NCBI GenBank assembly: GCA_044892525.1
Contig: CM097885.1
Location: 16,308,001-16,372,000, forward strand
Reading direction: 5' to 3'
Length of the DNA: 64,000 nucleotides
DNA from: Schmidtea polychroa
Lineage: Eukaryota
Positions 6,620-47,962 of the stretch are shown here, piece by piece (positions within the stretch are counted from its first letter, which is position 1; the number at the start of each line of letters is the position of its first letter). Position numbers and translations under genes: made by a program. A model generated the notes under the pieces. The model was not told the origin of the DNA and did no database searches. It saw only the letters and a list, made by a program, of their open reading frames with translations.

Positions 6620-7174
6620 TCAGTTATGGTTGAAAGCCAACCTATGAATCATTAATTTATGATCTTTAAATTCTTTATCACTTAGACCTTTTATATATTC
6701 AGGATCAGTATTAAAATATTTAAGTTCTAAACATATAGGATTAAAAACTTGTGAATATAAAGGTTTCTCGATTTCTCTCTCGGGATAAATAATTTCAACA
6801 TTATAAATATCAAGATCAGTAATCTTTGTATCATATAACTTATTCAACTTTTCTAGATTTTTTATTATAGGGATTAAATTATTTCCAATAGGTAGAGTTG
6901 TCTTTAAATCACTTAGTATGAATCTCTTATCATCATAATTTGATAATGATACTTTTTGAGATTCTATCAAGTGAATATCATGGTTTTCACTTTTAAGTTG
7001 ATGTATTTCATCAATTTTATCTTTATGATTTGGGTTTAATGTATCTATATAATCTTGATGAGAAAGATTCTTTGCGACCACTCTCTGTATTCCTTTACAT
7101 CTGTTATCCTTTAAATTAGTAATATTTTTTATAATTTCAAAAATGTTATTTTCTTGATTTTTAGTTTCCATCAT
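6620..7174 (-). CDS. Stand-alone paralogue of the pPolB C-terminal ~150 aa
   Basis: Aligns without gaps to the end of the adjacent pPolB (KGIQ...NYDDKRFILSDLKTTLPIGN...ELKYFNTDPEYI); about 60% identity by manual count. Confidence 0.9.
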   Translation of the reverse strand: MMETKNQENNIFEIIKNITNLKDNRCKGIQRVVAKNLSHQDYIDTLNPNHKDKIDEIHQLKSENHDIHLIESQKVSLSNYDDKRFILSDLKTTLPIGNNLIPIIKNLEKLNKLYDTKITDLDIYNVEIIYPEREIEKPLYSQVFNPICLELKYFNTDPEYIKGLSDKEFKDHKLMIHRLAFNHN

Positions 7175-7198
7175 TTTATAGTGTTAAAATTCTAATTC

Positions 7199-15400: not shown

Positions 15401-16928
15401 TTTTCAGGGTAATAATCTTAAGGAAGTCCTTGCTGACGCTACAGTGGTGTTCAAATTGATCAATGTGATTATATAGGTTTCTAAGGGTGATGGTGTTCAG
15501 GATAGATCTGCTTCCTTCCCCTTTGGGTCTACATTGGAGGCAGTCAATCAAAGAGTCGTAGGTTATAGCGATGTTGTGAATTTCTTGGGCGTGTGACCTA
15601 ATCCTATCAATATCAGTGGCAGAAATTTGTCCACAAAAAGAAGTATGGTGGCATCCACGACACTGTACTTTGCCCCGTAGATCAAAGTAGTATAATATTT
15701 CATTATTTATGTCTTTGGACATTGTATCTTTATTTATTATAGTTTTTCTCGTCTTTATGAGATCTAAGGTGGGGGGGGGTTTAAGAGTGTACGTTTTACC
15801 TCTAACCTCTAGGCTTTTTTGGAATTTTATGTCGTTTCTGTGGTGGATGGGAGTGGATGTGGTTGCGTACTTTGGTGTCTCTTTATCAGAGGGTATAGTG
15901 TCTTTCAGGTTTATAAGGTTTGGTGATTTACGTTCAGTGTTTTCGACAGGGATAAGCCTTTTAGGAATAGGGGACGATCTATCAAGGTCAATGTTTTCGG
16001 AGGAATAAAAGTTGTAGGTTTTCTTTTCTTGCCTAACAGGGGTTATGGTTGCAGAGTCATCTAGCGGTGATGGTCTAACTGAGGGATATATTTTGGGTTC
16101 CTCAATTGAGTCGGTAGGTAGGGTAAGGTTATAAGAGTTGGATTTCTCAGGCAGAGGAGGTGAGGGGTTGTTAGTAGGAAGGGCTAAGAGAGGGGCGTTT
16201 GAGGAAGGAGGTTCATTGGTAGAGCTTTGGTCAGAGGCACTGCTAGAGAGTACGACGTCATCACAGTCGGAGTTGAATAGATCGCTTGGGTATTCTGGAG
16301 GTCTAACATCCTCTCGGTCTGATATAAGGGATTCTATTGTGTCGTCAAAGTAGCAACTATAATGTGAGGTATCTATACTAATTTTGGATTGTTTCGAGGA
16401 GGAAGTGTCTATTTCAGAGTCATTGGGGATTGATGAGCTGTAGGTTGATGAGTTGTCCCCATCTATATTGGAAGAGACAAAATCGTATTTTGTGTTGAGA
16501 ACTTTTGTTCTCTGTACTTTCTTGAGCAAGTTTTCATTAGGGCGAATTTCTTTGGGAGCAAATGGGTTTGGAATTGGTTTTGAGTAGTGTGGTCTACGCG
16601 AGGTGTTGATGTTAGTCTTTTTGCTAGTGGACTGAATGTCAGGGTTGTTGCCTAGTTTTCTCGGTTGTCTTGGAAAATTGACAGATGTCTTAGGAGGTTC
16701 ATTAATCTCATGACTATTGGTTTCAATAAGGGCAGCATATCTATTATTTATTAGTCTATTATTCAGGTTGTTATTCTTCTTATGGGGGTAGGTGCTTTCA
16801 GGAAGAGTGGATACCATATCAGTGCTCAGGATACATTCAGGGGGTTCATCTCTGACAACGTTCACATTAGTGTCATAAATAATCTTTGAATTATCAAGCT
16901 TCCTTTCAACGTTGGTATTTAGTGGCAT
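12460..16928 (-). pseudogene. Retrotransposon polyprotein (Zn fingers, degenerate Ulp1-like protease, RT) with in-frame stops
   Basis: ORFs 14997-16928 and 12678-14834 share a frame and are separated by one TGA (ETT*WSQH). The frame continues past TAG 12678 to ~12460. No CCHC knuckle or PD..D endonuclease follows. Confidence 0.85.
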
Positions 16929-27374: not shown

Positions 27375-29069
27375 ATGTTTGCAAGCGTATGGGAATTGAT
27401 GAAGAGGAATAAATTTGAATTTGATAATGAAGTCAGCAGTGAATTGATATGCAGAATTTGCAAGTGTTTAATGATAAAAGCTTGCCATGCTCCTTGCGGT
27501 TGTCGCTTTTGTTCTGATTGCATTGAACATTATTTGGATGGAAAAGATAAATTCTGTCCAGGAGCAGCAAAACATTGTAGAAAGAAAATGATAAATTTTA
27601 TTAAGGATGTTTCGGAAGATCATGCAGCCAATTTAAGGATTTCAGAAGTGATAGTGAGATGCCCAATGCAAAATTGTCAATTCAAAGACGAATTAGAGGT
27701 GATGGAGAGCCACATGAGAACATGCAACAAGCAACCAATAAAATGTCCATTCAATAGAATCGGATGCGAAATGAATGAGGTGGATAAGGATGAAATGAAA
27801 GTCCATCTCATTGAGAACACTGAAGGCCATAGCAAATTATTGATCGATCAGATCAGTAATTTATGCAATGAAATGCAATCAATGAGAGACGAGAATGTGA
27901 CATTGCGTAATGAAATTATCAATATCAATGTAAAATTGTATTTGTAATTAATTTTATTGATATTTGTGATTGTAGGTGAAACTGGGCAATCTTGAAAAGA
28001 AAGAGAAAGAGAACAGAGATGAAATAGAAGAATTGAATGAGGAAATGGTGGCATTGAAGAATGAGAATCGCTCATTGAGAATGGAGATGGAGACAAATAT
28101 TGGATCAATCAATCAAGTTTGATTATTGATTTGATTTATTATTGATTTGTTATTGATGCAAAGCAGGTCAGACAGCAAATTGAGGCGATTGGATCAAAAT
28201 GTCAACAGCAAATTGATGATATGAAAGAGAAAGGCGAGCGGCGGCTGCAACAGGGGAATGAAAAGGTGATTTATTGATTTATTGAAATGTTTGAATTTGA
28301 GGTTCAGTTGCAGCTTGAAATGGCAAAATGCGCCAATGAAATTCGGCAGAATGAAACAAAATATCAACAGCAAATTGATGATATGAAAGAGAAATGCGAG
28401 CAGCGGCTGCAACAGGGGAATGAAAAGGTGATTTATTGATTTATTGAAATGTTTGAATTTGAGATTCAGCTGCAGATTGAAATGGCGAAATGCGCCAATG
28501 AAATTCGGCAGATTGAATCAAAATGTCAACAGCAAATTGATGAGATGAAAGAGAAATGCGAGCAGCGGCTGCAACAGGGGAATGAAAAGGTGATTTATTG
28601 ATTTATTGTAATATTTGAATTTGAGATTCAGTTGCAGATTGAAATGGCGAAATGCGCCAATGAAATACGGCAGATTGAAACAAAATTAGCAAATGAAAAA
28701 TATATAAATTATGGATTTTTTGAATGGCAAATCGATAAATTTTCGCAACAAAAGAGATATGAAAATATTTACAGCGAGGCATTTTATTCCGGGCCAATCG
28801 GTTACAAAATGTGCTTGTGGGTGAGGATTGGGGGTGATTGGGTTGATGTTGGTTTCTGTTTGATGCGTGGGGCAAATGATGAGCAATTGGATTGGCCGTT
28901 CAATCAATCCGTAACAATCGATGTGATCGATCCAGCAAATGGCAGCATTTATATGAGCAAGTCAAGGAAATATTCAGATTGGCCTGATGCAGCCAGATGG
29001 GGGAAACCTTCAGATGATAGAAATATATACCAAATCTCGTATACCAAACTTCTCGTATACCAAATATAA
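27375..29069 (+). CDS. Host TRAF-like gene (RING, TRAF Zn finger, coiled-coil exons, MATH domain truncated at the C-terminus)
   Basis: RING CRICKC...CGCRFCSDC...CP; VRCP...C...H...C finger; MATH FEWQI...YSEAFYSGPIGYKMCL...LMRG..DEQLDWPF; short GT-AG introns. Confidence 0.92.
28190..28690 (+). repeat. Tandem 162-nt exon+intron units in the TRAF coiled coil
   Basis: Donor GT at 28266, 28428 and 28590; 42-nt intron plus 120-nt exon per unit. Confidence 0.9.
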
Positions 29070-29278
29070 AAATGAAAACATTACAAGTTTTCAAAAATAA
29101 AAATTTTTACCAATAATATCCTTTCTATGCTGAAACATTTTCTATAATTTTATATGAAAATATAATGTTTAAACATAGAAAGAATTGTGAAAACTATAAC
29201 GAGTTTTCAATAAAATATATACATTATAAAGAATACAAATCATATTTTTTTTTTAAAAAGATATATTAATATATCACA

Positions 29279-32200
29279 TTAGTCCGATAAAATGACATCA
29301 TCAATGTCAGTAACATCATCATTATTTATAATTCTTGGACTGTCCTGATCATCGAAAGATGGGCTTTCTCCACCAAAAAGCGGTCCAATTTCTTCATGAG
29401 TAAATACCTGGCCAGCATCAGTTTCCTCAATTCTTGGACTGTCCTGATCATCGAAAGATGGGCTTTCTCCACCAAAAAGCGGTCCAATTTCTTCATGAGT
29501 AAATACCTGGCCAGCATCAGTTTCCTCAAATCCTAAATAATGTCCATATGCCAGACTGGTATTAGGCCCCACCCATAGTCTCTTGTCATCGTTGTTCGAC
29601 AAGGCTATCTTCCTATTCTTGAAAGTAAAGAGCTGATGGTTTCTAGTACCTATTCTCGTTTGTGGCACCGTATATACTACGCTGTTGTTGTAGCAGTCTA
29701 AATAAGACTGGTGCCCTATCTCAGTATTACCAAGCTGAACTCCCTTAGCCCTAAGTGTTGCCTTATCTCCTAACAAACTATAACACTTAGGGCGCAAGAA
29801 CACCCATTCCTTATAACCAAGCCCTTTACTTTCATCCTTAAATTTCCCTATCACAGAATCCAAACTCTTTGAATACAAAGGATGAGCAGGATCATAATTA
29901 CTAGTGTCTAGAAGATTATCACGAATCATTGCCGGCAAAAGAGTGTCAAGCTTACAGTGCTTTATCTCTAAGAAAAAGGAGTCGGTGTCGCCGGCAACGA
30001 TATTTATATCACAGTTAAATTCATTTCTATATTTTGCCAATTCTATATACTGTAACTGGTACATCCTCAGTTTAGACAGGTCTAGCACAGATTGGCCAAT
30101 GAAGCTAGGCCTGTCTAAACATATAGAATCCTTATTTAGATGAGCTGCAATCAGATCATCATCAATTCTGATAGATTTTCTGAATGTAGGTTTTGAGGCA
30201 TATACAATCATCTTTTCAGCTGAATTGCATAACCTCAAATTCATCCGTTTTTTAAGGTTTTCCACGGATTTCCCATACAGACTATTATTAAATAATTTAT
30301 ATAAATCTCTATGCAGCTCGCATGTAGAATTTGAGCGCAAATTAGTATTAGTTGATATGTAATCTTTAAAAATAGGTGCATGCTTAAATTTAATTGCCCT
30401 ATGTACATTTTTAATTAAAGCCCCCAATTCAATATACAACTTGAGAAGTCGCCAATGAAGAACATGGTTCTTCTTCGGCCAATGCGTGAGCATCAGCTTC
30501 TCAACTTTTGAATCTGGCGGGCACATTTTTTCCGGAGCAATCGGAAAATCATTCAAAAAATCATGCAAGCAATCAGGGATATCGATATCAACCTCCATAG
30601 TATAGCCATATGGAAGGTTATCAATATCAGCATTCATACATTCATACAAGACAGAATCAAGGTCATCATACACCCATTCAAAATCACCATACGGAAGATT
30701 TTGGCTTAAGGCCCAACCATACAAGTTGTTTATATCTATATACAAGAGTTCTGTGTCTTCAGAACTTACAACATAATGTTTGTTAACAAATGTTAACCCA
30801 CCCCGTATCCCTCCTTCATAGAAATTAAACATTTCCATGTCCTGTAAAAGTTCAATGGGTTCCTTTAATGTCATAAGCGCTGAGCCCCATGACATACCGG
30901 GAATACCATAAAAATTTAGAGGCTCAAGACCATTGTATGCAATGGCCTTTTCACGGAATTGTGTAAAATAATCTGCGAGGAGAAACACATCAAGTTTAAG
31001 GTATGTTAACATATAGTCTAACATATTGTTGCAATTTTGTTGAGTCCAAATAACTTGGGCTAATTCATATTCATCATTAGACACAGAATCCCAAATAGGA
31101 GGCAATTCAAGAGTTGATTCCAGGACCTCAAGAGATGTAGCGAAGTCATAAGGGAAGATACCTTTTGCTCGAACAATTGCGCCATCAAAAACAGAAGAAG
31201 TTAAAGGCAGATCGGAAAGAGTCTTAACAGCTTTTGCAAGTGATGAATTAACAAACTGCATGCTGTCAATAAAACGAACAGGCAGTTTGTTAATGTACGC
31301 GATGAGAGAGATAAATTTTTCCGTAGTGTTTGGAATAATATTCAATTCCCAAGAAGGAAAATTATTCAAACCATACTTCAAAATATGATGGAGGTCATAC
31401 CCCCTCAAATTGTGAAATACAACAGGTAACTGTCTCTGAATTCTGCGAGACACATTACATTTCCTACAGGCAGCACCAAGATACTTACCTGTGAAGGGAC
31501 AATGGTACCTAACTCTATCTCTAATAAATTTTTTACAAAGATAGCAGGTCCTGGAATTATAAAAGGCACGATCTTCAGCGAAAGACAAGGTTTGCATAGG
31601 CTTATTACCGTTAATTTCGTAATATGGTAGGACAATTGTGACAGCAATTTCCTCCACCTTATGCAAGAAAGACAACACGCAATCCTCACCAACAAACTCA
31701 TAATAAAATCTAGTTTTGTTATAATTGTTAATTAGTAACATGCCTGCTGTTATTGGCATGTGTTTTTGATGGTGGGTGATATCCTCAGGTAAAATCGACT
31801 CAAAATCGGCATATATCACGAATGGCGGGGTTACTGTTTTTGCATAGTTTGAGAATATTAAATTTTTCTCTTTCGGTAATGTATATAAAGTAGAACCTAT
31901 TTGATTCTTACGGCATAGGTCTACATGAATATCATAAGCGCTCCTATGTCTGAAGCCATTAAGGCAATGTGGGCACTATTTGACGCGAATCCAAAGGTGA
32001 CAGGAGCTATTTGGGTGTGAATTCATAAGTTTTTGAAGATCAAAAACTGCGGTGTAATGAAAATTATCACCGTCTTCTAATAATAATAAATATATGGGTT
32101 TACCACCTATAACCTTAGATCGGTGAATAATATCTAACTGGGGATGATGAGGGATATAATCTTCATTGTTGATATAATCTTCATTGTTGATAGGTTTGGC

Positions 32201-33480
32201 TGGTTTATTTCTATATATTAAAACGTTAATGGCTAAGTTCAGTTCACGGTTTTTGCGTTCGAATTTAGGTATGTTACTTAATCTCATCGGGCAATCACTA
32301 ATGGGGTCAAAATTAATTTCATCCAAATAATTTTGGTAAGCACTAACTCGATGCATATTTCTGCGTATAACATCACGCTTTAAGAGGGCTAGAACACTAT
32401 ATATAAAACACATATCATCATCTGTGTTCTGGATATTGACTATTGCGTGTTTAGACTTTAACGCTGTCGGGGTGGGAATATAACTATGTCCAGCTAACCT
32501 ATTCATAATCTTATACTTATTTATTATGAAGTCAATTTCTTTTATTTTAACAACCCGCCATCCGCTACCTAAATATGTGAATTTTTCTATCTTATTATTT
32601 AATTTAGTGACGCCATTGATTAAAAAATTTTCTGAAAAAACTTCGGCGTTATTGGAGAAAAAATTATCTCGGATTTCGCCATCTTTCTCAAATTGTATGA
32701 GAACCGTGAACTGAATTTTAACGGGCCCCATACCGTTCATTTCTGATACTAGTTTTTGAATAATTTTTGGTGTTATTGCTATCTGTACTAAGGCGTCTTT
32801 CTCCACGTCAAACCTTAGATTTTTTCTAGCCCCCTTAAAATCTATTTCTATTTCTGGCTCGTCGTCTATATCGACTGAACCGCCTATTTGATTATTTAGT
32901 ATATTATTTAGGATATTATTTAGGTTATTATCTATTTCATCACCACCATAATTAACTTTAACAATTTTAGATGGAACACAAGACCCCGGACTAACAGCAG
33001 GCCGTTTTTTATTTTTAATTAGATTATTATTCACATTATTATTTACATTATTATTTACATTTTGTGCTGTGCTATTCACATTTTTATATACAGTTTTATT
33101 TACAGTTTTGATATGTTCTGTATTATTTACATTTTGTGCTGTGCTATTCACATTTTTATTTTTATAAACAGTTTTATTTACAGTTTTGATATGTTTTGTA
33201 TTATTTACATTTTGTGCGTGCTATTCACATTTTTATTTTTATAAACAGTTTTATTTACAGTTTTGATATGTTCAGAATTATTTAACTTATTAAAAAGTTT
33301 CTTTTTATTTAAAGTAAACTGATTTAGATGTTTACTATGTATATTATAAAAATCCTTATATTTTATAGGTTGGGAAGTCTGGCATAGTGGACATAAATAA
33401 TATTTGAGTCCATAGAATTTATGCCCATAGTATTTTTTCATGTTTTTGTGACATACTTTAGTATGCCCAGTCGAAGACAT
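29279..33480 (-). pseudogene. pPolB of element B with one frameshift (~33218) and one in-frame TAG (31976-31978)
   Basis: Three ORF-track pieces join. A 1-nt deletion in one copy of an N-terminal repeat (AGCACGCAC vs AGCACAGCAC) links the Zn-finger ORF; IRVK*CPHCL reads on into YADFE, YIDINNLYG, KLFNNSLYGK and GDTDS. Confidence 0.93.
29330..29529. repeat. Perfect 99-nt tandem duplication in the pPolB tail
   Basis: EETDAGQVFTHEEIGPLFGGESPSFDDQDSPRI twice, identical at the nucleotide level. Confidence 0.95.
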
Positions 33481-33692
33481 GCAATACCGAGGATATAATC
33501 GGCCTATTAATAAATTTATTTAATAATTATCTAAATATTGTTGTAATATAGAATGTTTAATATCTTTATTAACAATTGTTAGTAGTTATTCAGTTTTTTA
33601 TTAGACAATAATTATAAAACTGAATAACTATTAACAATTATTAATAAAGGAAATATTATTAGCAGTTAGATCAAAGACATGGAAATTTAAAG

Positions 33693-33774
<82 letters not shown>

Positions 33775-33778
33775 TATT

Positions 33779-33835
<57 letters not shown>

Positions 33836-33888
33836 AGAGAGATGTAGTTGCATGCTGACTGCAAACTACTGGTAGAAATTATGGGTCA

Positions 33889-34038
<150 letters not shown>

Positions 34039-34392
34039 TCTAAACTTAAATTATAACTTTCTCAAGAATAGTTCAAAATTTTCTTCTTTTTAAATTTTCA
34101 TCATCATTTCATATAAATTTTCATCATCTGTTCATATAAATTTTCTTCATATAATTTTTCAAATAAAATTGTTCAGGATTTTTCAAATAAATTTTCATCA
34201 TCTGTTCATATAAATTTTCTTCATCTGTTCATATAAATTATCTTCATATAAATTTTCTTCATATAAATTTAAATCGTCAATTACAAATTTACAGCATTTT
34301 TTAAAATAATTTAAAGAAAGTTATAATTTAAGTTTATAAATAATTTATAAATAATTATGATTAATAAAAAATATTATTCATGAAAAAAAAAA

Positions 34393-35096
34393 CTAACATT
34401 TAGACTCTGAATCAGAGTCTGTTTCGTCCTCAGTGAGGATATTTCCAAAGATTTTATGGGCATCTCCAATAAAAGTTGAGGCATAATCTGCTTCCTCCCC
34501 AATATCTGTGGGGGCATCAATTAACATTGTTTCAATAGGTGCAGCATAAATTGGAGCATCATCCTCAGAGAGGGCATACCGAATAGGGGCATCATTCAAA
34601 ACATTTGAAGCTTCTAAATCATTTTTAAAAATTACATATAAAAATAATAAAAACTTACGAGTATTTTCTATCATCGCATGTTCGATGAAAAACTCATTGT
34701 CGATGTGGTTAGGAATCATTTGACTATGTCCTAAAAAAGGTTTTTAATTTAATACAATAATAATAATAAATTACTTGATAAATCATCATCATCCTCACTA
34801 ATGACTATTGTATCGTCATTGTCGCTAATAATTACTATTGTATCGTCATTGTCGCTAATAATTATAGGATCTTCATCATCGCTCACCATTATAACGTCTA
34901 AATAATAATAATAATATTAATAAATAAAAATAAAATTACCATATGTACAATTTAAATTAAATCCATCTTCATTTTCAGTAACTTCGTACCACAAATCATC
35001 TATAAAATAAATATATAAAAATAAATAAAATAATAATATTTTACCATTGCTGCCAGCCATCATACATCTCAGAATATTATTTTCTTGTCCTTCCAT
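34393..35096 (-). CDS. Spliced acidic protein with four tandem SUMO-interacting-motif-like repeats (at least 5 exons)
   Basis: ATG 35096; phase-1 GT-AG introns 35000-35044, 34898-34939, 34731-34774 and 34614-34658 give one frame containing VIMVSDDED, IIISDNDD, IVIISDNDD and IVISEDDDD. Confidence 0.8.
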
Positions 35097-35525
35097 TTTG
35101 TAAAAATTTTAAATTAATTGTGACGAATTTGGAAATTGCAAATGTTTATAAAGAGATTTAAATTTTCCTGTCCCAGCCAATAAGATTTCGGTATACACAC
35201 ATAGAAACTTAAATATTTTACTCTGTTAGCCAATCACATCGCATCTACATGTGCCTTGTTAATCACACTGTTTCCATGTGACTGTCTTTATTAGTCAGTT
35301 CTTTGTTAACATGCACTGTGCATGCACGGAGCATGTGATGGCTTTATGATAAGTTAATTAAAAATAATTAATAAGTTAATAATAACAATAAAATTAAAGT
35401 CTTTCTTATTAAATAATAATAAAAGTCATTCTTATTAAATAATAATAAAAGTCTTTCTTATTAAATAATAATAATAAAAGTCTTTCTTATTAAATAACAA
35501 CAACAAAGCATACACTAAACATTTA

Positions 35526-35940
35526 TTAAACATGAAACTTTTTGTACAACAACCACGCCAAACAGTGTTGACCACATGTTTGGGTCAAGGGATTTTGAAA
35601 CATAGTTTTATTATACACAATAGGTTTCCCCATTGTTTGTAGTTTTGATATCAACAAAGCCGGGTAATAAAAACCCATAGGATCGAACACGAATATATTA
35701 CCAGGTTTCATATATATAGCTATCCAATGTTCTCCACCAAGATGAGACGATTGAGTATTGACGATTATTGCTTGATTATTGCTCAAATATGGAATTTTAT
35801 CAAGAGGAAAAACTCCAACAAATTCATTTCCCAATATCTGTTTTCCAATTCTCAGTACCTGAACAGAACTACTTAAATAAATCCAGAGTATAAAAAAAAA
35901 CAACTTACTCCATGACAACTTTTTGTGTTTCAATATACAT
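35526..35940 (-). CDS. Adenain-like protease of element B, two exons
   Basis: GEHWIA, FVFDPMG, QNPLTQTCGQHC. ATG at 35940 abuts the capsid stop; the GTAAGT...TAG intron 35869-35908 joins MD|SVQVLR. Confidence 0.88.
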
Positions 35941-37154
35941 TTATACCAACACAGCTCTATTTGCAGTAATTTGAACTTCATTTTCAAATACTCCATATAT
36001 TATAACATGTACTGGTTCAGTAATAGCTTTTGCAAACTTTATATCCAGTCGTAAATTTCCATTTTGAGGTAATTGACTTTGATTTAAATCAAAATCAGGG
36101 GCTAAAACAAATGTAAAAAATGGGTATTTGCTTTTAAAATCCTCTAGAGTTATTCCGCAATTCAAATTTTTATCTAAATAACCCAGATTTCTAACAATAC
36201 TCTGCATATATGTCGCACAGTCATTCTCGAAATCTTGAATATATGTTTCTCTATAATCAGTATTTTTCGACAAAGTCAATGATGTAACACCAAAGTTTTT
36301 GAAAATTGAGCTGGACGCAGTATATGATCCATTATATTGTGCTTCACTTTGAAATGTTATCAGAATAAAATTAGGCATTCTTCTGTCACCAAATATTTGT
36401 TCTTTATAGAATGATGAAGCACCTTTAGCAATAGCAAATTGTACAATTTCCTTTGTTTTTAATGGATAAATTGCATGTTTTGAATTAAGACCCAATTGAT
36501 GACCTGCTAATACTGAGGGGTCTACTCGAACTCTTCTGACCAATAATTTTGCATCAACTAATTGACATATTGGTGTAGTAGTTGCACTAGTAAGAGATAA
36601 TGCAGAATCAGACCTTTTCAGTCTAATATGTACATTAACTCCCGGTAGTAAATATTTCGGTTGATCCATAAAATCAAGTTGTAATGATGAGCACATGGTG
36701 AAAACCTTTGAGCCTTTTACTACTTTTTTCTTTCATCATCACTGCCATAGCCCATAGGAGTAAGACATGTATTTTTAGTATCGGAATTGTAATTTAAAAT
36801 AGTTTCTATTAATGCCTTGTGAATGAATGTATTATTTCCACCCTCAATCTTGATATTATTAAATCCCAACACTGCATCTTTAAAAAGAGTATGAAACAGG
36901 AAATTGTTCGGTATTACATCTGCATTGGCATCCAAAACTTTTCTATCTTTATCTACAACCTTAATCTGAACAGTCAATAAAGTATCGTTCAAATCTAAAT
37001 ATTCGGTTTGTGAACCATTAATATAAAACTCGATATCATTTCTACTATCGGTAATTGAATTCATAGGAAAAACTTCGTCAAATGCCCCAAATTCTATTAC
37101 AGCCTGGGGCGACGGTCTATCAAATATACATAATTCAGATTTACCACAAATCAT
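35941..37154 (-). pseudogene. Major capsid protein (double jelly roll) with a 1-nt frameshift at run 36724-36729
   Basis: CGKSELCIFDRP, IEFYI...YLDLNDTLL, LQLDFMDQPKYLLPGV, GNLRLDIKFAKA. One extra A gives RKKVVKGSKVFTMC and joins the two ORFs. Confidence 0.9.
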
Positions 37155-37513
37155 TTTGCAAATATAGTTCCATGTCCTTTCATTCTTTTGTTTATACGTG
37201 ATATTCCATGTCTTTTACGTTTTGGAGCTGGAGCTGGAGCTGGAGGTTTTTGAAACATACCTGCAACCCCTGGTAAAACTTTCCCTAATTCAGCTAAAGT
37301 ATTTGTTTTTAGAGATGGTAATATTTTCTGTTCATTCATAATAACATCTTTTGCAGTCTTCATACCAAAACTACCAATACGTTTAAGAATAGGCAGGGCA
37401 AATCTACCAATTGTTCTCAACCATCCTGATCCGTACTGTTTACCAATAAATTATGGTAATTCACCGCCAGATTGGCTACCACTATACATACTAATAATAT
37501 CAGAATTAGCCAT
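37151..37513 (-). pseudogene. Conserved Polinton core protein with amphipathic helix; in-frame TAA at 37451-37453
   Basis: MANSDIISMYSGSQSGGELP*FIGKQYGSGWLRTIGRFALPILK; QxGG and QxGxG motifs; basic tail. Confidence 0.75.
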
Positions 37514-38549
37514 TTATTTTACGAAAATGTAATGTCAAATGAGTTTTTGAATCTTTTGGAAAGTTTATAAGTTTTCCACTATCATCACGAATATTTATTT
37601 CTATATTGTTTATACATGAACTTGCTATTGGTAAATACATGGGATTATCGATATTTATATTGACAACTTCATCATGTTCATATTTTCCAATCCATACCGA
37701 TTTCAAAAGAGGAACACTGGAATCACCAACAATTATGGGTTCGATAATGTTAGTATATATGAACATTTGTTGATGATGTTCTAGTATTCTTGGTTTGCGT
37801 ATACCAGTCGATTTTTCTCGATATTTTTGCCTATCTAATCCAAGTGAATTTGCCAAATTTTTATCAAATGTAACTTCGCAAATATCCTCATTCAAACTGA
37901 AGGTAAACATCAAATCTTTCACAATTTCCAAATTTTTAAATATGTGTGAACAATTGAACTTTAAATATTTAAGTAAATCATCAAGTTTATCAAAATATAA
38001 TTCATCAGCAAAGGTAAATGATTCTTCAACTTCATCATTATACGACACAGATATTTTGATTTCTTCTTTCATTACACTGTTTGCTTCAAATAGATTAAAA
38101 CGTAATAAATACTCGGTCTCCGTAACAATATTTTTCAACTTATTGCAACCCATTCGTTTGGCATCTTCAATAGTTTCGAATGTTATTGTAAACGGTTTAA
38201 AATCACAACTGATATTTAATCCATCCTTGTAAAACATATAGCAATGCGAATCTAATATTTGATTCGGAATATGATATGTTTTATCATAATTACTAATAAC
38301 AAAGATACCGCTACATGTTTTCACAATATTCCTTCTGAAATCAATCTTACAATGACTATAAAATGGGAATGTGTTGTACACAAATGTAAAATCTTGCAGT
38401 GCAACTTCCCAGTCACCATTTAAAGAAATCGGATTCTGGAGATTGACCATAAATTTACTGGCTTGATTGTCTGGATGAATTAATGGGCAAGTATTGCTCG
38501 GTAAAATAGTATAAAAATTCACTTTACTAGGTCTTTTGCTGATATCCAT
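37506..38549 (-). CDS. Minor capsid protein (penton) of element B
   Basis: FYTILPSN...NQASKFMVNL...GDWEVAL; MFIYTNIIEPIIVGD..VPLL; IEINIRDDSGKLINF...LTLHFR. Confidence 0.9.
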   Translation of the reverse strand: MDISKRPSKVNFYTILPSNTCPLIHPDNQASKFMVNLQNPISLNGDWEVALQDFTFVYNTFPFYSHCKIDFRRNIVKTCSGIFVISNYDKTYHIPNQILDSHCYMFYKDGLNISCDFKPFTITFETIEDAKRMGCNKLKNIVTETEYLLRFNLFEANSVMKEEIKISVSYNDEVEESFTFADELYFDKLDDLLKYLKFNCSHIFKNLEIVKDLMFTFSLNEDICEVTFDKNLANSLGLDRQKYREKSTGIRKPRILEHHQQMFIYTNIIEPIIVGDSSVPLLKSVWIGKYEHDEVVNINIDNPMYLPIASSCINNIEINIRDDSGKLINFPKDSKTHLTLHFRKING

Positions 38550-39151
38550 GACGGGTTTTGATAACCATGCCATTTGACATAGTATTGTTTATCCTTACCG
38601 ACCTTTTTCGTTTTCAATATCTTTTGAATTCTAAATACTTTTGGGGGAGGAATGACTTGTAATTCCTGCTCATAAAATTTCCCTTGTACAATATTATTAT
38701 CATTATCTTTGATGACATACATTACAGGATTCTGTTTAGTATTTATTTTTGAAATTACAAAGACTTCATCACTCCAATTTGTATCAAAATTTTTAATAAA
38801 TGGTGATGCACTAATTTTACTAATTCTAACATGGTCACCGACTTTATATTTAGGTTTTGCAATTTTTACAGATTTCTTAGAAGTCAATGATGTTTTTGAT
38901 GTAATATCAACAGGTCTCAATCCATTCAGTCCTCGATGTGACGAATGATTATAACTTGTTATTATTTTCGGTAAAGCATTTACCCATTTTTTATTACCTT
39001 GATGCACGAACAATTTCTTTAATCTATCTCTCAATGTTCGATTAAATCTTTCAACATGGGCAGCTTTGTATTGAGAATGTACCGAGTAGTGATTTATTTT
39101 CAGTTTATCGAGGATTTGCTTAACTTTGCTATTGTAGAATTCTTTACTTAA

Positions 39152-39246
<95 letters not shown>

Positions 39247-39634
39247 CTAAATCTGTTTGCAAGTTATTAGGATGTCCATCTTTAAATAAAATATTAATTG
39301 CCTTGGACATTTCTTCTGCAGATTTTGCCTTGACTGGTATTGCTCGTGCAAACCTGCTGTATACATTAATACATGTTAAAATATATTTATTTCCATTGTT
39401 AATTTTCGAATAAGGTATCATCTCCATCAAATCCATTTGCCATAAATCGTCAATACCAAATGTTTTATATGCTCTTGTTGGAAATCTTTTCCGCATTGGT
39501 TTGTTCAAACTGTACGCAAGCTGATCTGATAACCACTTCTGGGTTTCTTTTTTCGAATTCTGAACTCTTTTCTTTAATTTTGCCACTCCACCGAAACCGG
39601 TTTCGTCTTCTGGGTTCGTCCAAATCTTCTCCAT
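38519..39634 (-). CDS. rve integrase with C-terminal chromodomain, interrupted by an (ATT)n intron-like insert
   Basis: WQMDL, LQTDLG[insert]KEF, HVERFNRTLR; chromodomain FRIQKILKTK...YYVKWHGY...SWI; likely start MEKIW at 39634. Confidence 0.92.
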
Positions 39635-39692
39635 TACAACAAGAAGATTTAAAATTAAATTTAATGTCGGGCAATGAAGGATTAGCACCCAT
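39465..39692 (-). CDS. Small overprinted ORF with an N-myristoylation motif
   Basis: MGANPS fits MGxxxS; also contains SSCC. The ATG lies 3 nt after the upstream stop and the ORF overlaps the integrase 5' end in another frame. Confidence 0.45.
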   Translation of the reverse strand: MGANPSLPDIKFNFKSSCCNGEDLDEPRRRNRFRWSGKIKEKSSEFEKRNPEVVIRSACVQFEQTNAEKISNKSI

Positions 39693-39695
39693 TGT

Positions 39696-40223
39696 TTATG
39701 ACTGTGTAACTCCACCTAATAATGATAATGCCAGAGGTATCAAGGCACCAATAAATCCACCTTGTTGTTTATATATAATTTTCCTCATTTGCTTACGATT
39801 TTTATTATTTACTAAGGATAACAATGGTTTCCTATGTTTGCTCAATAAATGCTTTTTTCATTTACTGATTTTAATTTTGCCTTTGACTACTTTAAGTATA
39901 ATATTGAGTAAATCATCGACAACGAAATTTGGGAATGATTGCAATATATTCATTCTTTTCATACTCGGGGCCTTTAACAATGCATTAAAAAATGGAAAAC
40001 TGCGATGATTTTTAACTACTTTTTTACTGGTTTTACTGGTTTTACGGGTTTTACGTTTAGGTTTAGGATTTTTCGAAATAAGATTCATTGCAGAGAAATT
40101 TTCAGTTACAAGTTTTTTAGATGGTGTATAACTAGTTGTTGGTGGAACTTTTGGAACTTTAATACTCTTTCTAATACTTTTTCTTAATTTCCTAATATTT
40201 TTCACCCTTGCTTTTAGAAACAT
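39696..40223 (-). pseudogene. Basic Polinton core protein ending in QQGG plus hydrophobic tail; in-frame TGA at 39858-39860
   Basis: Reading through the stop gives KKHLLSKHRKPLLSLVKNKNRKQMRKIIYKQQGGFIGALIPLALSLLGGVTQS*. Confidence 0.75.
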
Positions 40224-40241
40224 TATTATTCATAGAGGTTT

Positions 40242-40868
40242 TCAACTTTGTTTATAAACCATGGCACCTTTTGGGTTGAAAATATCGGTTTTTACTCGTA
40301 AATCATCGGGACATTGTTGCGTGAAATCAAGAAATATATATCCATGAGGTATTTTTGTAGCATCTTGAAATGCACTGATAAGAAAATTACGATTGTTAGG
40401 GTATGCTTGACGTGCAAGAAAATCAATCACTGTTGCATCTCTAGGATTCTTGAAAATAACTAAATATTGTACATTTAAATTACGTGTTCGATGTGCCCCG
40501 CCTTGATGAAATAGATTTTGTGTTATGAAAATAACTGTTACACCGACATGTCTGCTGATCTTTGTAAATAAATTATTAAAATCTTTTTCTTTATTAGCTT
40601 CTTGATACAGATCATCGATAATAATGACATCACCTTTCTTTAATCGGCTGGACCAGTTTTTATCGAATCCCTTTACTATTTTCATGTTTTTTAATTTACA
40701 GAAACTTGATTGAGTTAATCCATGTTCTTCATCAGCACCCCTATGCCAATAAATCCTGTTGAATTTTTATTTGAATAAATTTGATTTTAGTAATTTACAA
40801 ACAAATAATGTTTTTCCACTACCACTCGGACCAACGATTTGGTATACTGCATCATTTCTTAATTCCAT
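40242..40868 (-). pseudogene. A32-like packaging ATPase of element B; in-frame TAA at 40767-40769
   Basis: GPSGSGKT, IIIDDL, SRH, ITQN and FKNPRD lie in one frame across the stop. Confidence 0.92.
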
Positions 40869-40971
40869 TTCAAAAATTTTATAAATATATGTGTATTTGT
40901 TTATATTCAATGATTTAATGAACTCGTGCTCAATTTGTATATAAAGACTAATTTTCATAAATGATTTAATA

Positions 40972-41409
40972 ATGTTAGCAAATATAAATTATCGAGGAAA
41001 TTTTGATGTATCGAATATGAGGTTCCCACCAGGGAAACCCCAGCAAATTATCGATAGAAGCGGGAAATATCCGATAATATTTTTCAAGACTGGTAAATGT
41101 AGAATCATGGGATGTAAGAAACCTTTGGATATTAATAAATTACAATATCGAATAAATAATATTATAATCCAATCAATTACCGTTACTATGGATATGGGAC
41201 ATAGTATCAATTTATATAACATGTCGAAAAAATGTGATTGTATGTTTGAACCGGAATTGTTTCCGGCACTAAGACTATTAAAATATAACCCTATATGTGT
41301 CAACGTGTTTGCTAGTGGAAAGGTTGTCATGCTGGGGTTGAGAAATTTGGAGTATAGAGAATTTGTTGACAATGTTCGAAATGAGATAATTTCATTGGTC
41401 GATTTCTAA
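40972..41409 (+). CDS. Divergent TATA-binding protein (TBP)-like protein
   Basis: Two TBP repeats: IIFFKTGKCRIMGCK (cf. LIFSSGKMVCTGAK) and IQSITVTMD...FEPELFPAL...VNVFASGKVVMLG (cf. YEPELFPGL...LIFVSGKVVLTG). Confidence 0.88.
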   Translation: MLANINYRGNFDVSNMRFPPGKPQQIIDRSGKYPIIFFKTGKCRIMGCKKPLDINKLQYRINNIIIQSITVTMDMGHSINLYNMSKKCDCMFEPELFPALRLLKYNPICVNVFASGKVVMLGLRNLEYREFVDNVRNEIISLVDF

Positions 41410-41483
41410 TTGGTTAATTTCTAATTGGTTATTGATTGATTTAAACAAACGGTTTTTTGTTTAGGATTCATTTATTCAACACT

Positions 41484-41850
41484 ATGTACAAATTACCAAG
41501 CTCTGCAAACCTCATGAAAGATATTGACGATTATGGTAAATTTAAAATTTTTATTTTGACATTTTTTAATATTTATTATTTTAGAAAAATATTTAGAAGT
41601 TATGCTCAATAGGATAAAATATTATTATTCTCAAATTGCGGAAATAATCAAGGACAGAGAACCAGAAATCGTTCCAGATTTGATTTTTTATTCAACCCAA
41701 ATTAGAATTATGGAGGTATTCCATCAATTCTTATGGGATATTAAGATCGACAGAACCATGAAGCAAATGGAGCCGGAGTACCAGTGCATCATCGGATGTT
41801 CATGTTGTGCCGATCGATATCGGCGATATGTCGAATGGGAGTTAGTATAA
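41484..41850 (+). CDS. Two-exon hypothetical protein with a CxxxCxCC motif
   Basis: ATG 41484; GT-AG intron 41536-41584 splices in frame to ORF 41602-41850. Confidence 0.7.
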
Positions 41851-42169
41851 ACTCTGAGAAGGTTTCACTACTCCCGGATTGTTGATTTGGGTTATGAATA
41901 AATGTATTTCGTGTTTGAATTGTGTTTTTTTTTATATTTAAAATAATAGTAATAATATAAATAGTAATAATAATAATAATAGTAATAATAATAATAATAG
42001 TAATAATAATAATAATAGTAATAATAATAATAATAGTAATAATAATAGAAATAGTAATAATAATAATAGTAATAATAATAGTAATAATAATAGAAATAGT
42101 AATAATAATAATAGTAATAATAATAAAACATTAATAATAAAACATTAATAGAACATAAATGCAGCATTA

Positions 42170-42246
42170 ATGCAAATGACATGCAAATTTAAACAAAGAC
42201 ATGCTATAATCTGATTGGTTGATAGGCATGAGTCAAAGGTATAAAA
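42170..42246 (+). promoter_or_regulatory. Pol II-type promoter: two octamers, CCAAT box, AP-1 site, TATA box
   Basis: ATGCAAAT at 42170 and 42181, ATTGG at 42214, TGAGTCA at 42229, TATAAAA at 42240, ATG at 42281. Confidence 0.65.
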
Positions 42247-42280
42247 ACCCTGTAACATTTAAATTTATTCATTATTCACT

Positions 42281-42691
42281 ATGACCAAGAAAATTTCATG
42301 CACCGAAAAACCTAAAGAAATGGTACAACCAGTTCAAATGTTCCACAACTACAAAATGTATTTTTTGAAAGAAGAAATCAATATGAAATTAGTTGCACCA
42401 GTCAAGCTGATTCCAACTAAATTTGAATTCTTATCCGGCACGCTTTCAATGATTGATGTCAAAACTATTGATGATGTTTTTAAACGGATAGATTCGAATC
42501 TATCGTGTAATCAACATGCGTGGTTCAACAATAGATATGCAAGATTTTATGATGCTTTTGATGAAATCAGTTTCAAAGAAAATGGAAATTGGTATATAAC
42601 AATTGCAATCCAGGGATATAAAGTTGATAATAATGATGTATATTCTCCTATTTGGAAAATTATGTCTGCTAGACTTTCACAAATATTTTAA
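42281..42691 (+). CDS. Hypothetical beta-rich protein, possibly OB-fold/SSB-like
   Basis: Intact 136-aa ORF with a good promoter and a downstream AATAAA; the fold guess is weak. Confidence 0.6.
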   Translation: MTKKISCTEKPKEMVQPVQMFHNYKMYFLKEEINMKLVAPVKLIPTKFEFLSGTLSMIDVKTIDDVFKRIDSNLSCNQHAWFNNRYARFYDAFDEISFKENGNWYITIAIQGYKVDNNDVYSPIWKIMSARLSQIF

Positions 42692-42817
42692 TGTTATATT
42701 TAATAAATGTATTAGTCAGATTTGTTTTTCTCTTTATTAATTGCAACATAAATGCGAATGACATGCAAATTTAACAAAGAAAATCTATAAACAAACTTAT
42801 AATATAGTTTTAAAGTG

Positions 42818-43179
42818 ATGAAAATGACTGCAGAAAAAGGTTAACATGATTAATTAATTACCGAATTATTTATTATTTAGAATTTTTAATCAACTTTTTG
42901 TTGGAAAAGTTAGCAGAAATATCTGGTGTGAAAATTGAGGACATATTATCTATTACAAATGCCTTAAATATCGGCTGGATAGTTGAGAGTCAAGATACAG
43001 GATTTGATGATGAGGAAGAAACTCAAGAAACCGATACTCAAGAAATTGATGAGGAAATCTATGAACCTATAGAGGAACCTATAGAGGAACCTAAAGATAA
43101 TATTACGAATGATTGTATTGATCATGTCGTTGAAAATATAATGAAATGTGGAGATGACGACTGCGAATGTGTTAATTAA
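42818..43179 (+). CDS. Two-exon acidic protein with a Cys-rich tail
   Basis: ATG 42818; GT-AG intron 42840-42880 in frame with ORF 42898-43179; AATAAA at the stop. Confidence 0.65.
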
Positions 43180-43248
43180 TAAATCTTAGTGTTTGTAAAT
43201 TTATTTAAAATTTTATTTAAAAATCAAACAAAATAACTATATTAATTT

Positions 43249-43764
43249 TTATTTAAAAAATCTGGATAAAACATACAAAATAGCAACACCAGTTGCAAGT
43301 TTTATATAGTTTTTAAATTTTCTTTTCTGATCATCTATTTCCTTCGCATTTCTGGCGAGTTGATTTAGTACTCCCCATCCGCCATTGGCTTCAATCCATG
43401 GTTGAAACTTTGACTTGATTATCTAGAAAATAAATATTAATAAAATATAGATTATAAAAGTATTACTTCTTGAGACCACTGATAATAGTGCTCGGAGTCC
43501 CATAGACTTTTTTCAATTATTATCTTCATATAAGCGAACCCTACTAGTATTCGGGTCCACTTCATCTCCTCGTCGCATAGGCAGTTAAAAATCCTATTAA
43601 AATAGAATTTTTTTGGTTTCGAGACAATAGGAATTGATCACATCCTCAAAATCAATGTGATTACTTTCTATAATCTTTTCAGTCCGATCGACCAGAAAAC
43701 TGAGGCTTTCCATAATATTCCTGTTGACGAGTTCTCTTAAAAGATTTTCCATAAAATGAGACAT
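43249..43764 (-). pseudogene. Bcl-2 family protein (two exons; 1-nt frameshift at run 43608-43614)
   Basis: BH1-like LCDEEMKWTRILVGFAY, BH2 FQPWIEANGGW, tail anchor YIKLATGVAILYVLSRFFK*; phase-0 intron 43423-43466. Absent from the ORF track. Confidence 0.85.
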
Positions 43765-43869
43765 TTTTACAATAATTTAAAATATGATGTTTTATTTATA
43801 CTAATACCGTATGATTTTGATTGGTTGATAAACTATAAATGTAAAAGAAAGGTTTTGATTTGATACACC

Positions 43870-44370
43870 ATGAAAACTATATTCATATTGCTAATTATTA
43901 TAACGAGTGTGTGCTCACACAATACAACAATAACAGTGGAGTCCTTTAATAAATCAATATGTGTTTGTCCGAATACAGCCAAGTTGATGAATATTTTATA
44001 TATTCTCGACAAACCAAAATGGTCAAAGCATCCAGGAAAAAGAATATCTCAAAGATTGGAGAATTTAGAAAACAGTTATGAACTATCATTTGAATATATA
44101 CAAAATATAAAAATTAAATTGATTGATCATATTGAGGTTTTCAATAACTCTATTGTTGAAAATAAAAAGAATATGAAAATTATTGATAAGAAGCATGATT
44201 ATTTATTAAAAAAGATTGAATTATTATTAAGAGAAATTCAAACAATCAAAGGATCAATTGAATATCTGAAAATCAATTCAACGTTATCAATTTCAAACAA
44301 TATTGCTGCGAATAGTAGTACATCAATATTTAGTTTACCTTTGTTAATTTTACATTATTTTATTGTTTAA
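43870..44370 (+). CDS. Putative secreted or GPI-anchored coiled-coil glycoprotein
   Basis: Signal-like MKTIFILLIIITSVCS, several NxS/T sites, heptad region, Ser/Asn-rich spacer and a terminal hydrophobic tail. Confidence 0.6.
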   Translation: MKTIFILLIIITSVCSHNTTITVESFNKSICVCPNTAKLMNILYILDKPKWSKHPGKRISQRLENLENSYELSFEYIQNIKIKLIDHIEVFNNSIVENKKNMKIIDKKHDYLLKKIELLLREIQTIKGSIEYLKINSTLSISNNIAANSSTSIFSLPLLILHYFIV

Positions 44371-44507
44371 ATAAATGTATGTTTTGTTGATTTGTGAGTT
44401 GTTGAGCGTGACCAGTACCCTTGTGAGCATTACCCATAGAGGGAGAAAATATTTTGTCGGATAAACTCGGGGCAGTACCCTTGCGTACAATACCCAACAA
44501 TAATAAT

Positions 44508-44651
<144 letters not shown>

Positions 44652-44744
44652 TTAAGTCTTACCTGATTGGGTGAATGATAAATCACCCGCAAATTTCTTC
44701 ATAAAATTTGCTATAAATTTGCTATAAATTAGTGTCTGACTAAA

Positions 44745-45334
44745 AAATTAATAACTTTTATACCACTAGTGATAAAAATTATTTCTATGGCTCAAAAGAT
44801 TTGTCTTCGTCTGGTCTTCAAAATGAACTATAAATTGTTAAAATATTTTGAGATTTAGACTAAGTTTTTGGCTCACGAAAAGTAGGACTCCGCTAGCACA
44901 GTTAATAATATTTTTGAAAAATAATAATAATTTACCTTAAAATGACTAAAATGACTCTGACCAAAACCTTAATAACTTTTTTATTATTAGTGATAAAAAT
45001 TATTTCTATGGCTCAAAGGATAGATCTCCGTCTGGTCTTCAAAATGAACTATGAAATTTTAAAAGATTTTAAGTTTCAGACTAAGTTTTGGGGTCACGAA
45101 AAGTAGGACTCCGCTAGCACAGTTAATAATATTTTTGAAAAATAATAATAATTTTTGATGAGTCATCGGATGAGTCATTGTCTTTGTTCTAGACGAGTGA
45201 TGAGTCATCGGATGACTCATTGTCTTTGTTCTAAAGTTGACCTTGAAAAAAAAATTTTTAAAAATTTTTTCCGGCCGGGGGGGGGGGTACTGTGCTAGCG
45301 GAGTCCTGTTTTAGCGGTGCCCAAACCACCTACT
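44745..45334. repeat. Right terminal region of Polinton B: 221-nt-period duplication, AP-1 repeats and tip
   Basis: Two copies containing AGTAGGACTCCGCTAGCACAGT (44881, 45102), an inverted copy at 45289-45307, and terminal CCTACT. Confidence 0.85.
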
Positions 45335-47962
45335 AATTTGCACTCACTACAAGCAATTTGAACAAACATACACTTCAGCAGTCCCAACACAGATTTTAAA
45401 TCTAACTCTGCTGTGCTTTACAAACTCTTTTACTAGAATTAACCATAGCAACATAAAAGTGGCCATCAGCTAAAGGTGAGCCTCTCACAAGGACTGATAA
45501 TGTCCGACGTGCCTCAAGATTTACATAAGTATCATTGAAGATGTAGTGTCTTATTTAATCTGTCCCTATCATCATTATGTTTACTTCACCTATCTATTTG
45601 TCGTTACTTGATACCTCAAAATTCTGAATTTGGATTTTTACTTAAATAAATGAAGATTTGAAGTATGATAGGTGATACAAAGTGGGAAAACAATCTTGTG
45701 AAAGGGAGCAGAGTAAATCCGACACATGCCTTCTATAAGCAGTTCGTGGATCCAAGTAAGTACTGGACAATTATAATATGCAGGTGCATGCTCACTTCTT
45801 GATGGTATTCAAACCCTTGATAGAGTACCAACATTGATTGCTCAATGGGTTTCAAGCGGTATGCCACTTGCTTGTATTTTGAGTTACCCTGGAAACACCT
45901 CGAAAGGTAAAATGTGTGCTAACCGACCAAAATTAAAAATCGAATTGAAATGTGAAAGACAGGGCAGATACAGATGAGATACTATGAAAGATCATGGTGA
46001 GAATGGATTGATCAGGACTATGTTATGAAAGGGTCGAAATGCGAGAAAACTTACAAAAACAGAAAATAATTAATTAATTAATTTGTTGGAACTTAGGAGT
46101 GTGTCAATTAAATGTGCTAGGGTTACTTATGGATTTTGAATCGACTCCTTCCTAAACGGCTTCATGACTATTTTACTTTATGCCATCTGCGTATCCATGG
46201 TAACAACCATGTTGGTCCTGTACACAATGTCTGGAAATCAATGACCAGGTGAGCTCTACTATTAAAACTACTCCTCATTGTATTTTCATTTTCGGGTTCT
46301 GGACTGCTGATCGAAGGTCTTATGTCATGGTTCATTAGCTATTCCTTTCTTAGATTATTGTCATTTTTCATTAACTCCCAAAACAGGTTTACTCTTAACT
46401 ATTCTGTTTAAAAGATTTTGCCACACTCGCGACACGATGATTTCGATTAGTTCCCATGGTTAAACCCTCTCCGTCTCATCGCTGCCTGATTATTCTTGGA
46501 TAAAAAAAATTTATAAAACTATATAAAATTGTAAATAGCAATTAATCATAAAATAATAATAAAAATATAATTTTATATAATAAAATCAATATATAATATT
46601 GACAATTTATCAGTAGTTTATTAATGATATATTTAAAATCGAAAATTAAGAATCTTATATATAAAACTTTTAATATAATTGTTTGTTTACCAACTTTTCT
46701 TTAAATTAATTTTAACTAGATAGCAGCACGTTTTTGTTTCTAAAACATTTACATCATGATCTCATTAATTTACTCGCTATTAACCATCTAAATAAACAAT
46801 TTATATATGATTTTTATTCTGAATAAAATGTAAAAAACATGCATTATTGATTATAACAAAATCAAAATTTAAAGTTTTCATCGATTACTGCAAGTTCTTT
46901 GGTAAAAGTTTTCATCAGTTCTTTCTTGTGCTTTTCTAAGCCAGCTTCAAGCAAGTTACTAATTTCTTTTTCTATTTCAAAAAATGCCGTATTTCCTTTC
47001 ATTAGTGATTCGCTAAAATCATGACTTTCCTGGAGGCTTTGCAGTCGAATGTCAGCACAATCTTGCTTCAAATTAATATCAACTTCATAGAATGACTTGC
47101 TTCCTCAAATCGCTTCTAAATCTCTACATCTTTAGGACTTATTGATTCTAGAACCCTACCTTTATCTCGATGAGTTTCTGATCCATGTAATCATTGACAT
47201 CGCGATTTTGACCAACTTGATCCGTTAAGTTCTGAATGTCTTAACAATGTTACGCATATTCCTCCTGCAATATCAGGCAAATTGTCTCATTTTCATTCAA
47301 ATTCTTGACAGCTATTCGATTCTCGAATTCCAACAATTTTATATCACTTTTATATCAACTTAATAACTTCGGTTTATATCAATTTACCCATACAAAAACT
47401 TCAGAGTTCCTCATTAAATCTTCGCTTTGTTTTATGTGTTCCTGTAATTTCTCTCGTCTGATTTGGGTCTTCTCTTCAATAACAGATATCAAGTTTGATA
47501 TATAAGGTCCCAAATGACCATCGTAATTCAGCAGATATTCGAAATTGAAATTCGTGATTTCTTTAGGAATTTCTTTTTTGACTAAGTCTAGAAACTGGAA
47601 TGAGGGGTCAATTAAATACGAAGTACGACAAAATTTAAGTCTATTTGAAATTATGATGTCAATTTTGTTTTTATATCCTACACAATTAATATTAGCTCCA
47701 ATAGATATTGCCAAACATTTTATATCATATAAATAATGATTATTATAATGATAATACAATAATCATTATAATATTATAATAACAAAAAAAACATGGTCAA
47801 GATGAAAGGATTTCGTTATCAAGTCAGTCCTTATTGTTGTATGAAAAATACATAAAATTATATAAAGAATAGCCAAGATTAACGAGAAAGTGATGCTAAG
47901 GAAGCAGTTAAAAATGTGCTATCGATGGAATAAAATTATTGTGGAATTTTGCCATAAAATAA

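Follow-up and report, generated by a model that had tools for sequence, protein, structure and literature searches.

Results

A two-exon Bcl-2-like gene at the right end of a decayed Polinton/Maverick element

The window, meaning the whole 64-kb stretch of DNA analysed, contains a two-exon gene on the minus strand at 43764-43249. Three-frame translation placed its ATG at 43764 and its TAA stop at the end of the gene, at 43249. The gene sits near the right end of a Polinton/Maverick element, and the features relevant to it are as follows.

29050..45335, no strand assigned: decayed Polinton/Maverick (adintovirus-like) element with pPolB, adenain-like protease, integrase, A32 ATPase, TBP-like gene and probable capsid genes
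42818..43179, plus strand: convergent acidic gene, for which a separate GT-AG intron of 41 nt is predicted (42840-42880), found in 26 of 30 loci
43467..43764, minus strand: exon 1, with the helices up to alpha6 and the BH1-like motif; frame broken in the window copy
43608..43614, no strand assigned: T run, site of the frame shift in the window copy
43545..43562, minus strand: BH1-like KWTRIL, in another frame than the N-terminal part (frame 1), beyond the T-run shift
43423..43466, minus strand: intron of 44 nt, phase 0, GT-AG (GTAATA...TCTAG), 16 codons upstream of where Bcl-2 genes canonically have theirs (after GGW)
43249..43422, minus strand: exon 2, 57 codons, with BH2, linker, tail anchor and stop
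43375..43398, minus strand: BH2 motif WIEANGGW, in exon 2
43255..43305, minus strand: predicted C-terminal membrane anchor with basic flanks, from hydropathy; aligns with the tail of the host protein
44392..45335, no strand assigned: region of the right terminal repeat; the element ends at 45335, with AGTAG on the minus strand

The first-pass annotation had described a gene hidden from the open reading frame track by a 44-nt intron and a homopolymer frameshift, and both were found. Its estimate of about 155 residues agrees with the product of the open copies, which have 99 + 57 = 156 codons, and KWTRIL, WIEANGGW and the tail anchor were all located in the translated pieces, the anchor as a prediction. 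The hydrophobic tail of exon 2 had a mean Kyte-Doolittle value of 1.55 over 17 residues; a hydrophobic 17-mer with basic flanks (1.44-1.66) was present in all four copies scored, predicting a tail anchor.

Pfam searches of the element returned DNA_pol_B_2 (E 1e-27) and Peptidase_C5 (E 4e-6), both above their cut-offs, and rve (E 2e-5) and Pox_A32 (E 0.01), both under theirs. The viral context proposed earlier was thereby borne out, since the gene lies inside a Polinton/Maverick with PolB, protease, integrase and ATPase. The probable capsid ORFs gave no informative Pfam match, and their presumed assignment to a major and a minor capsid protein comes from their place in the gene order and from what they resemble. 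A stop codon in the ATPase and a split in the probable capsid frame indicate that the element is decayed. No left terminal repeat was found within the 64-kb window; in a close relative the match to the window extends as far down as 29050, past which that copy enters a left repeat. The convergent acidic neighbour also has a predicted intron, and the accessory end of the element would therefore hold more than one spliced gene.

Several other features of the region were recorded. The TBP-like gene (145 aa, 40972-41409, plus strand) matched PF00352 with E 7e-15 and is also present in a sister Maverick family (54%), and the integrase ORF (38519-39634, minus strand) contains an in-frame ATT microsatellite that encodes a long poly-Ile run. 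An intron-containing TRAF-like gene with RING, zf-TRAF and MATH domains (27375-29069, plus strand) has a last exon that extends, near 29050, into the element's truncated left end. A second, different Polinton lies at 311-11128 (integrase, ATPase and a 1309-aa PolB) and is followed by a pair of ORFs like those of non-LTR retrotransposons (12678-16928), all labelled by resemblance.

The gene is, by sequence, a Bcl-2 family member

Homology to Bcl-2 was assessed against the Pfam profile PF00452, which has a curated cut-off of 31.4 bits. Taken singly, the three pieces of the window copy matched no Pfam family. Exon 1 alone of the nearest open copy scored below the cut-off (16.4 bits, E 0.014), and exon 1 of diverged subfamilies gave E values of 2-4e-4. 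The profile reads through introns whose length is divisible by three, and subfamilies 70-77% identical scored 32.6-34.5 bits in this way, against the cut-off of 31.4; the intronless gene of the sister Maverick family, at 32.7 bits, also lay above it. Matches to PDB sequences, though weak, were all to the Bcl-2 family (7/7 and 46/46), and a profile of the family that included the host row matched BAK best (E 1e-4). Comparison with the Atlas gave 0.92 to Bcl-2 clusters, with a recognition value of 2091, below the 2300 needed for a strong score.

On the Schmidtea 'Bcl2-like protein' C9WPR4, residues 37-126 were covered by exon 1 and residues 127-180 by exon 2, in a gap-free alignment. The BH2 sequence WIEANGGW aligned with WIQENGGW of Bcl-xL and has the W-x3/4-GGW pattern. 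At the turn between alpha4 and alpha5, the Trp and Arg of BH1 were present and aligned; the glycine is replaced by Thr in this gene and by Ser in the host relative. The canonical BH1 is given as NWGR in a passage of PMC8998228, which also describes mouse Boo, where a Ser at the glycine position alters BH3 selectivity. The first-pass annotation had suggested that the Gly to Thr change may alter BH3 binding. The change says less than that reading assumed and is not special to this gene, because the host relative (RWSRVI, WSR) and the sister Maverick gene (WSK) also lack the glycine, which had therefore already gone in the lineage; the glycine-less BH1, as read from the alignment, is inherited and is no viral novelty.

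AlphaFold models were made of exon 1 (9-row alignment) and of the intronless sister gene (7 rows). Both models were all-helical and poor (pLDDT 60 and 58). With these low-confidence models, Foldseek placed Bcl-2 proteins on top with no E value below 0.14, and in VIA-align unrelated helical folds came out ahead (best Z 6.5) of Bcl-2 folds, which reached Z 4.7-5.2. Of the profile and structure checks proposed in the first-pass annotation, the profile thus stood for related copies and failed for single window pieces, and the models remained of low confidence. The homology itself holds through the alignment to the Schmidtea protein and the related copies that pass the cut-off, and on its sequence we assign the gene to the Bcl-2 family.

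The LxxxGD motif in helix 2 is the BH3 motif of the pro-apoptotic Bak/Bax class. A Gly-Asp pair was not found at this place in any of the eight aligned rows.

Transcripts of the family are spliced at the predicted site in probable RNA runs

The intron was 44 nt long in all 30 close copies fetched. Homologues 37-44% identical in exon 1 had a GT-AG intron of 41-46 nt at the same codon, and across subfamilies its length varied from 41 to 51 nt without regard to frame. On C9WPR4 the two exons abut, exon 1 ending opposite residue 126 and exon 2 beginning opposite residue 127. Retention of the intron would bring a stop after 4-16 codons, with loss of BH2 and the anchor.

Contigs from sequencing runs were searched for the joined exons. 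A contig of run X1 leaves exon 2 at 43422 and continues exactly with the end of exon 1 (10 letters), and one of run X3 leaves at the same position and goes on into the exon 1 end of a diverged subfamily (57 letters). X1 and X3, from one study, are taken as RNA by guess; each gave one junction contig, and the letters fit the family and not the window copy specifically. Run X2 gave two edge pieces only, and a fourth run, whose kind is not on record, had no such junction end among the matches listed. A search of the assembly for the intronless junction of the family gave 0 matches, ruling out genomic intronless copies as the source of the junctions. That the 44 nt are an insertion and not an intron was likewise excluded by the junction contigs, the free length and the presence of the same site in distant families. 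Family transcripts are therefore spliced at the predicted site in probable RNA runs, as the earlier reading of the 44-nt intron had anticipated; the intron is real at the level of the family.

Two AATAAA sequences lie on the plus strand within the intron (43429 and 43439), and one X3 contig ends in poly(A) at 43445. Across the 30 copies the intron varied little, with pi at 0.0125; third codon positions gave 0.033 and 0.072. The intron may double as the 3' end of a convergent plus-strand transcript, for which the one contig could also reflect internal priming.

The family is abundant and under purifying selection

The assembly searched comprises 781 Mb and is AT-rich. An exact pattern search across the intron found at least 1,115 intron-bearing junctions, which is a lower bound on copy number. 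Forty of 1,592 candidates from a DNA search were scored, all 96-100% identical, and 30 were fetched for comparison; exon 1 was open from the ATG in 27 of these, the exceptions being the window copy and two others. A protein search with exon 1 yielded 2,416 candidates, and all 150 that were scored were 92-100% identical, 147 of them without a stop. Among nine pairs chosen across subfamilies, dN/dS was 0.03-0.15 in every case and low on both exons, with dS saturated in the distant pairs. The family is alive, with purifying selection on both exons. A chance open reading frame is ruled out by this selection together with the conserved intron, and an ordinary host locus by the element context and the copy number.

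In four of four inverted pairs picked from the protein search (L031/L032, L033/L034, L036/L037 and L038/L039), the element end that bears the Bcl-2 gene was duplicated, as inverted repeats of 1.8-3.7 kb or longer at 98.0-99.96% identity; much of PolB was lost in three. This form is in the minority, with 3 pairs counted by eye among the first 100 of the 1,115 junction matches. Inverted ends double the gene, by analogy with poxvirus terminal repeats.

The window copy differs from the working members of its family. The break at the T run is private to it and absent from the other loci among the 30 compared, and four of its substitutions occur in none of 29 other copies, three of them changing a residue. 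Because the break falls in a homopolymer and nowhere else in the 30-locus set, an assembly error in an otherwise intact gene has to be weighed for this copy. We regard such an error as possible though doubtful, since the four unique substitutions are also present and the element lacks a left terminal repeat, has a stop in its ATPase and shows a split in the capsid frame; contigs of the runs cannot tell one copy among more than 1,000. The window copy is most likely a dead pseudogene in a decayed element and non-functional, and a reading of it as a cryptic working gene is not supported.

A host bcl2-like gene is the nearest cellular relative

The nearest cellular relative is the single-copy host bcl2-like gene L051, followed by the sister Maverick family at 48%. 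L051 is 89% identical to C9WPR4, which together with Burro-like polyproteins bearing a Bcl-2 domain points to a planarian host, and its best match was Bcl-xL (E 4e-6). No Maverick genes were found around it within the 20 kb fetched. The sister family has a 144-aa intronless Bcl-2 gene adjoining the same TBP-like neighbour. A homologue search with the sister gene returned nothing at E 0.01, and among 1.84 billion representatives a profile search turned up 17 matches, two of them under 1e-10, with no close relatives outside planarians.

An intron boundary after GGW is conserved in cellular Bcl-2 genes, according to a section of PMC8998228. L051 has a GTGAGT donor directly after GGW, as have four other host paralogues (5 of the 8 host loci checked). 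The intron after the GGW of BH2, present in L051, is absent from the viral gene and from the sister Maverick gene; judged by gene structure, the missing canonical intron marks the viral gene as no ordinary host locus. A separate group of seven near-identical host-type Bcl-2 genes, with a canonical NWGR, lies within 0.9 Mb (L040-L046; G000:C4, about 89.9-90.8 Mb), and the one gene checked has no donor after GGW.

In a tree of 28 rows, a clade (100/99) united five metagenomic proteins with the Maverick genes and the bcl2-like genes of planarians. Rows with the upstream intron site, seven in all, made up one clade (99/95), and the two intronless rows another (96/90); the intron has decayed in two of the seven, with the donor lost in one and exon 2 not found in the other. 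The order among the Maverick, host and metagenomic groups was not settled by the tree; in an earlier tree Maverick monophyly was neither recovered nor rejected (AU p 0.21). AT-rich composition could pull rows together, and the root between host and Maverick was unsettled in both trees. The earlier tree was built without Burro, two partial host rows and three near-duplicates, and the 28-row tree additionally without the long-branch row L053 and without P0010, P0013 and P0019. The five metagenomic sequences (P0012, P0016, P0020, P0023 and P0024) are small Bcl-2 proteins that group with the planarian bcl2-like genes (81/90, not starred); four of the five, all that were looked up, lie on short metagenomic contigs, and the P0016 cluster, on contigs up to 13.7 kb, could be viral.

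The simplest reading of these relationships is that the gene was likely captured from the host lineage, with a single later intron gain. An ancestral Maverick would have taken up a host bcl2-like gene without its canonical intron, via mRNA or by later loss of the intron, and one Maverick lineage would then have gained a new short intron 16 codons upstream. We also considered transfer in the opposite direction, by which the host bcl2-like gene would come from a Maverick or a related virus. The host genes do lie inside the clade that holds the Maverick genes, beside the five small metagenomic proteins, and Maverick monophyly was not recovered in the earlier tree. Yet monophyly was not rejected either (AU p 0.21), and the canonical donor after GGW is kept by L051 and the four other host paralogues, so that we consider this direction very unlikely.

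Discussion

We propose that working copies of the gene encode a tail-anchored anti-apoptotic accessory protein of about 156 residues, a reading drawn from sequence comparison to which we give a probability of about 0.7. Such a protein would sit in the mitochondrial outer membrane or the ER membrane and would hold Bak/Bax-like or BH3-only proteins of the host, as its host relative is thought to do; it would thus block mitochondrial apoptosis while the element replicates. We take C9WPR4 to be the Smed-bcl2 examined by RNAi. A passage of PMC7586133 describes Smed-bcl2 as pro-survival, and part of PMC3566077 presents it as required for cell survival.

The anti-apoptotic role has to be weighed against two others for the same protein. 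It might keep the Bcl-2 fold without binding BH3 in its groove, and act as a decoy of host Bcl2, through its membrane anchor, or in autophagy or innate signalling like some poxvirus and herpesvirus folds. The Thr in the glycine position of BH1 and the identity of only 23% between exon 1 and the host protein would fit such a role, and viral Bcl-2 folds acting on NF-kappaB or Beclin-1 are known from sections of PMC7022251. We consider it rather unlikely, since the glycine is likewise missing from the host relative, and purifying selection has preserved Trp and Arg of BH1 along with BH2 and the anchor. A pro-apoptotic, Bak-like protein that aids particle release by killing the cell late is highly improbable. 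Helix 2 without an LxxxGD BH3 argues against a killer protein, and the host relative is named Bcl2-like and matches Bcl-xL best (E 4e-6), despite a predicted tail anchor in our gene and a family profile whose best match is BAK (E 1e-4).

The anti-apoptotic reading may be carried a step further. The more than 1,100 spliced copies would constitute a dispersed, PIWI-gated reserve of a survival protein derived from the planarian's own Bcl2, a proposal that we hold to be unlikely. Polintons are de-repressed in normal differentiation, according to part of PMC8532177, and a reserve released at that time would therefore add to cell survival in turnover and regeneration. If so, studies of the host gene would be buffered or confounded by the viral copies, and the intron that these copies share would put a date on one capture and a single gain of an intron within an endogenous virus lineage.

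Bcl2 homologues in adintoviruses have already been reported (Starrett et al. 2021, in parts of PMC8502044), and a lancelet adintovirus Bcl2 (UniProt A0A5H3CWZ2) is present in the viral structure library. As in those viruses, the planarian gene is a Bcl-2-family accessory gene beside pPolB, integrase, protease and packaging ATPase; unlike them, it is spliced at a non-canonical site, can be traced to one host gene and is present in more than 1,100 copies. The searched portions of the text and supplement of PMC8502044 contain no planarian entry and no remark on introns for the Bcl2 genes. The searched parts of PMC6431247, PMC8502044 and PMC8532177 hold no description of a spliced Maverick Bcl-2 gene; planarian genome papers, repeat libraries and supplements may annotate it. 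Anti-apoptotic homologues are mentioned in general terms only in the relevant part of PMC11071296. The present analysis adds to the known adintovirus cargo the splicing and copy number of this gene, a donor that can be traced, and the history of the intron.

The closest resemblance is to the host proteins C9WPR4/ACW83059.1 (P0005) and L051, with which the alignment is gap-free across both exons (23% and 30% identity), tail included, and which share a BH1 without glycine and the BH2 pattern PW..NGGW. The host gene differs in being single-copy, with 184 aa, a longer N-terminus and its intron after GGW, whereas the viral gene encodes about 156 aa and has its intron 16 codons earlier. Another planarian mobile element with a Bcl2-like domain is the Burro LTR retrotransposon, described in a section of PMC6431247, and Burro-like long-ORF copies with a Bcl-2 domain are present in the same genome. 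There, in contrast, the domain lies within a retroelement polyprotein, and its very long branch leaves its kinship to the viral gene unsettled. Adenovirus E1B-19K and other viral Bcl-2 proteins, as covered in part by PMC7022251, resemble the planarian protein in the proposed block of apoptosis from a membrane anchor. Pfam Adeno_E1B_19K gave no sequence match for the window pieces, exon 1 of the open copy or the sister gene, and the only link was an Atlas cluster with mixed labels (0.86 for exon 1, 0.93 for the sister gene). The comparison with E1B-19K in the first-pass annotation is an analogy only; the nearest relatives found are the bcl2-like gene of the planarian host and further Maverick genes from planarians.

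In itself the window copy is unremarkable, a single decayed member of its family. Annotation based on open reading frames misses spliced accessory genes in such elements. Anti-apoptotic cargo of Polintons has been known mostly as an orphan label on maps; here a single genome would allow one to trace the lineage of the donor, how the host intron was lost and how a new one was gained, for a gene that is expressed (in probable RNA) and selected in an abundant family. The idea can be tested by RNAi in a tractable animal, and the gene supports the view that these elements face the cell-death defence of their host as viruses do.
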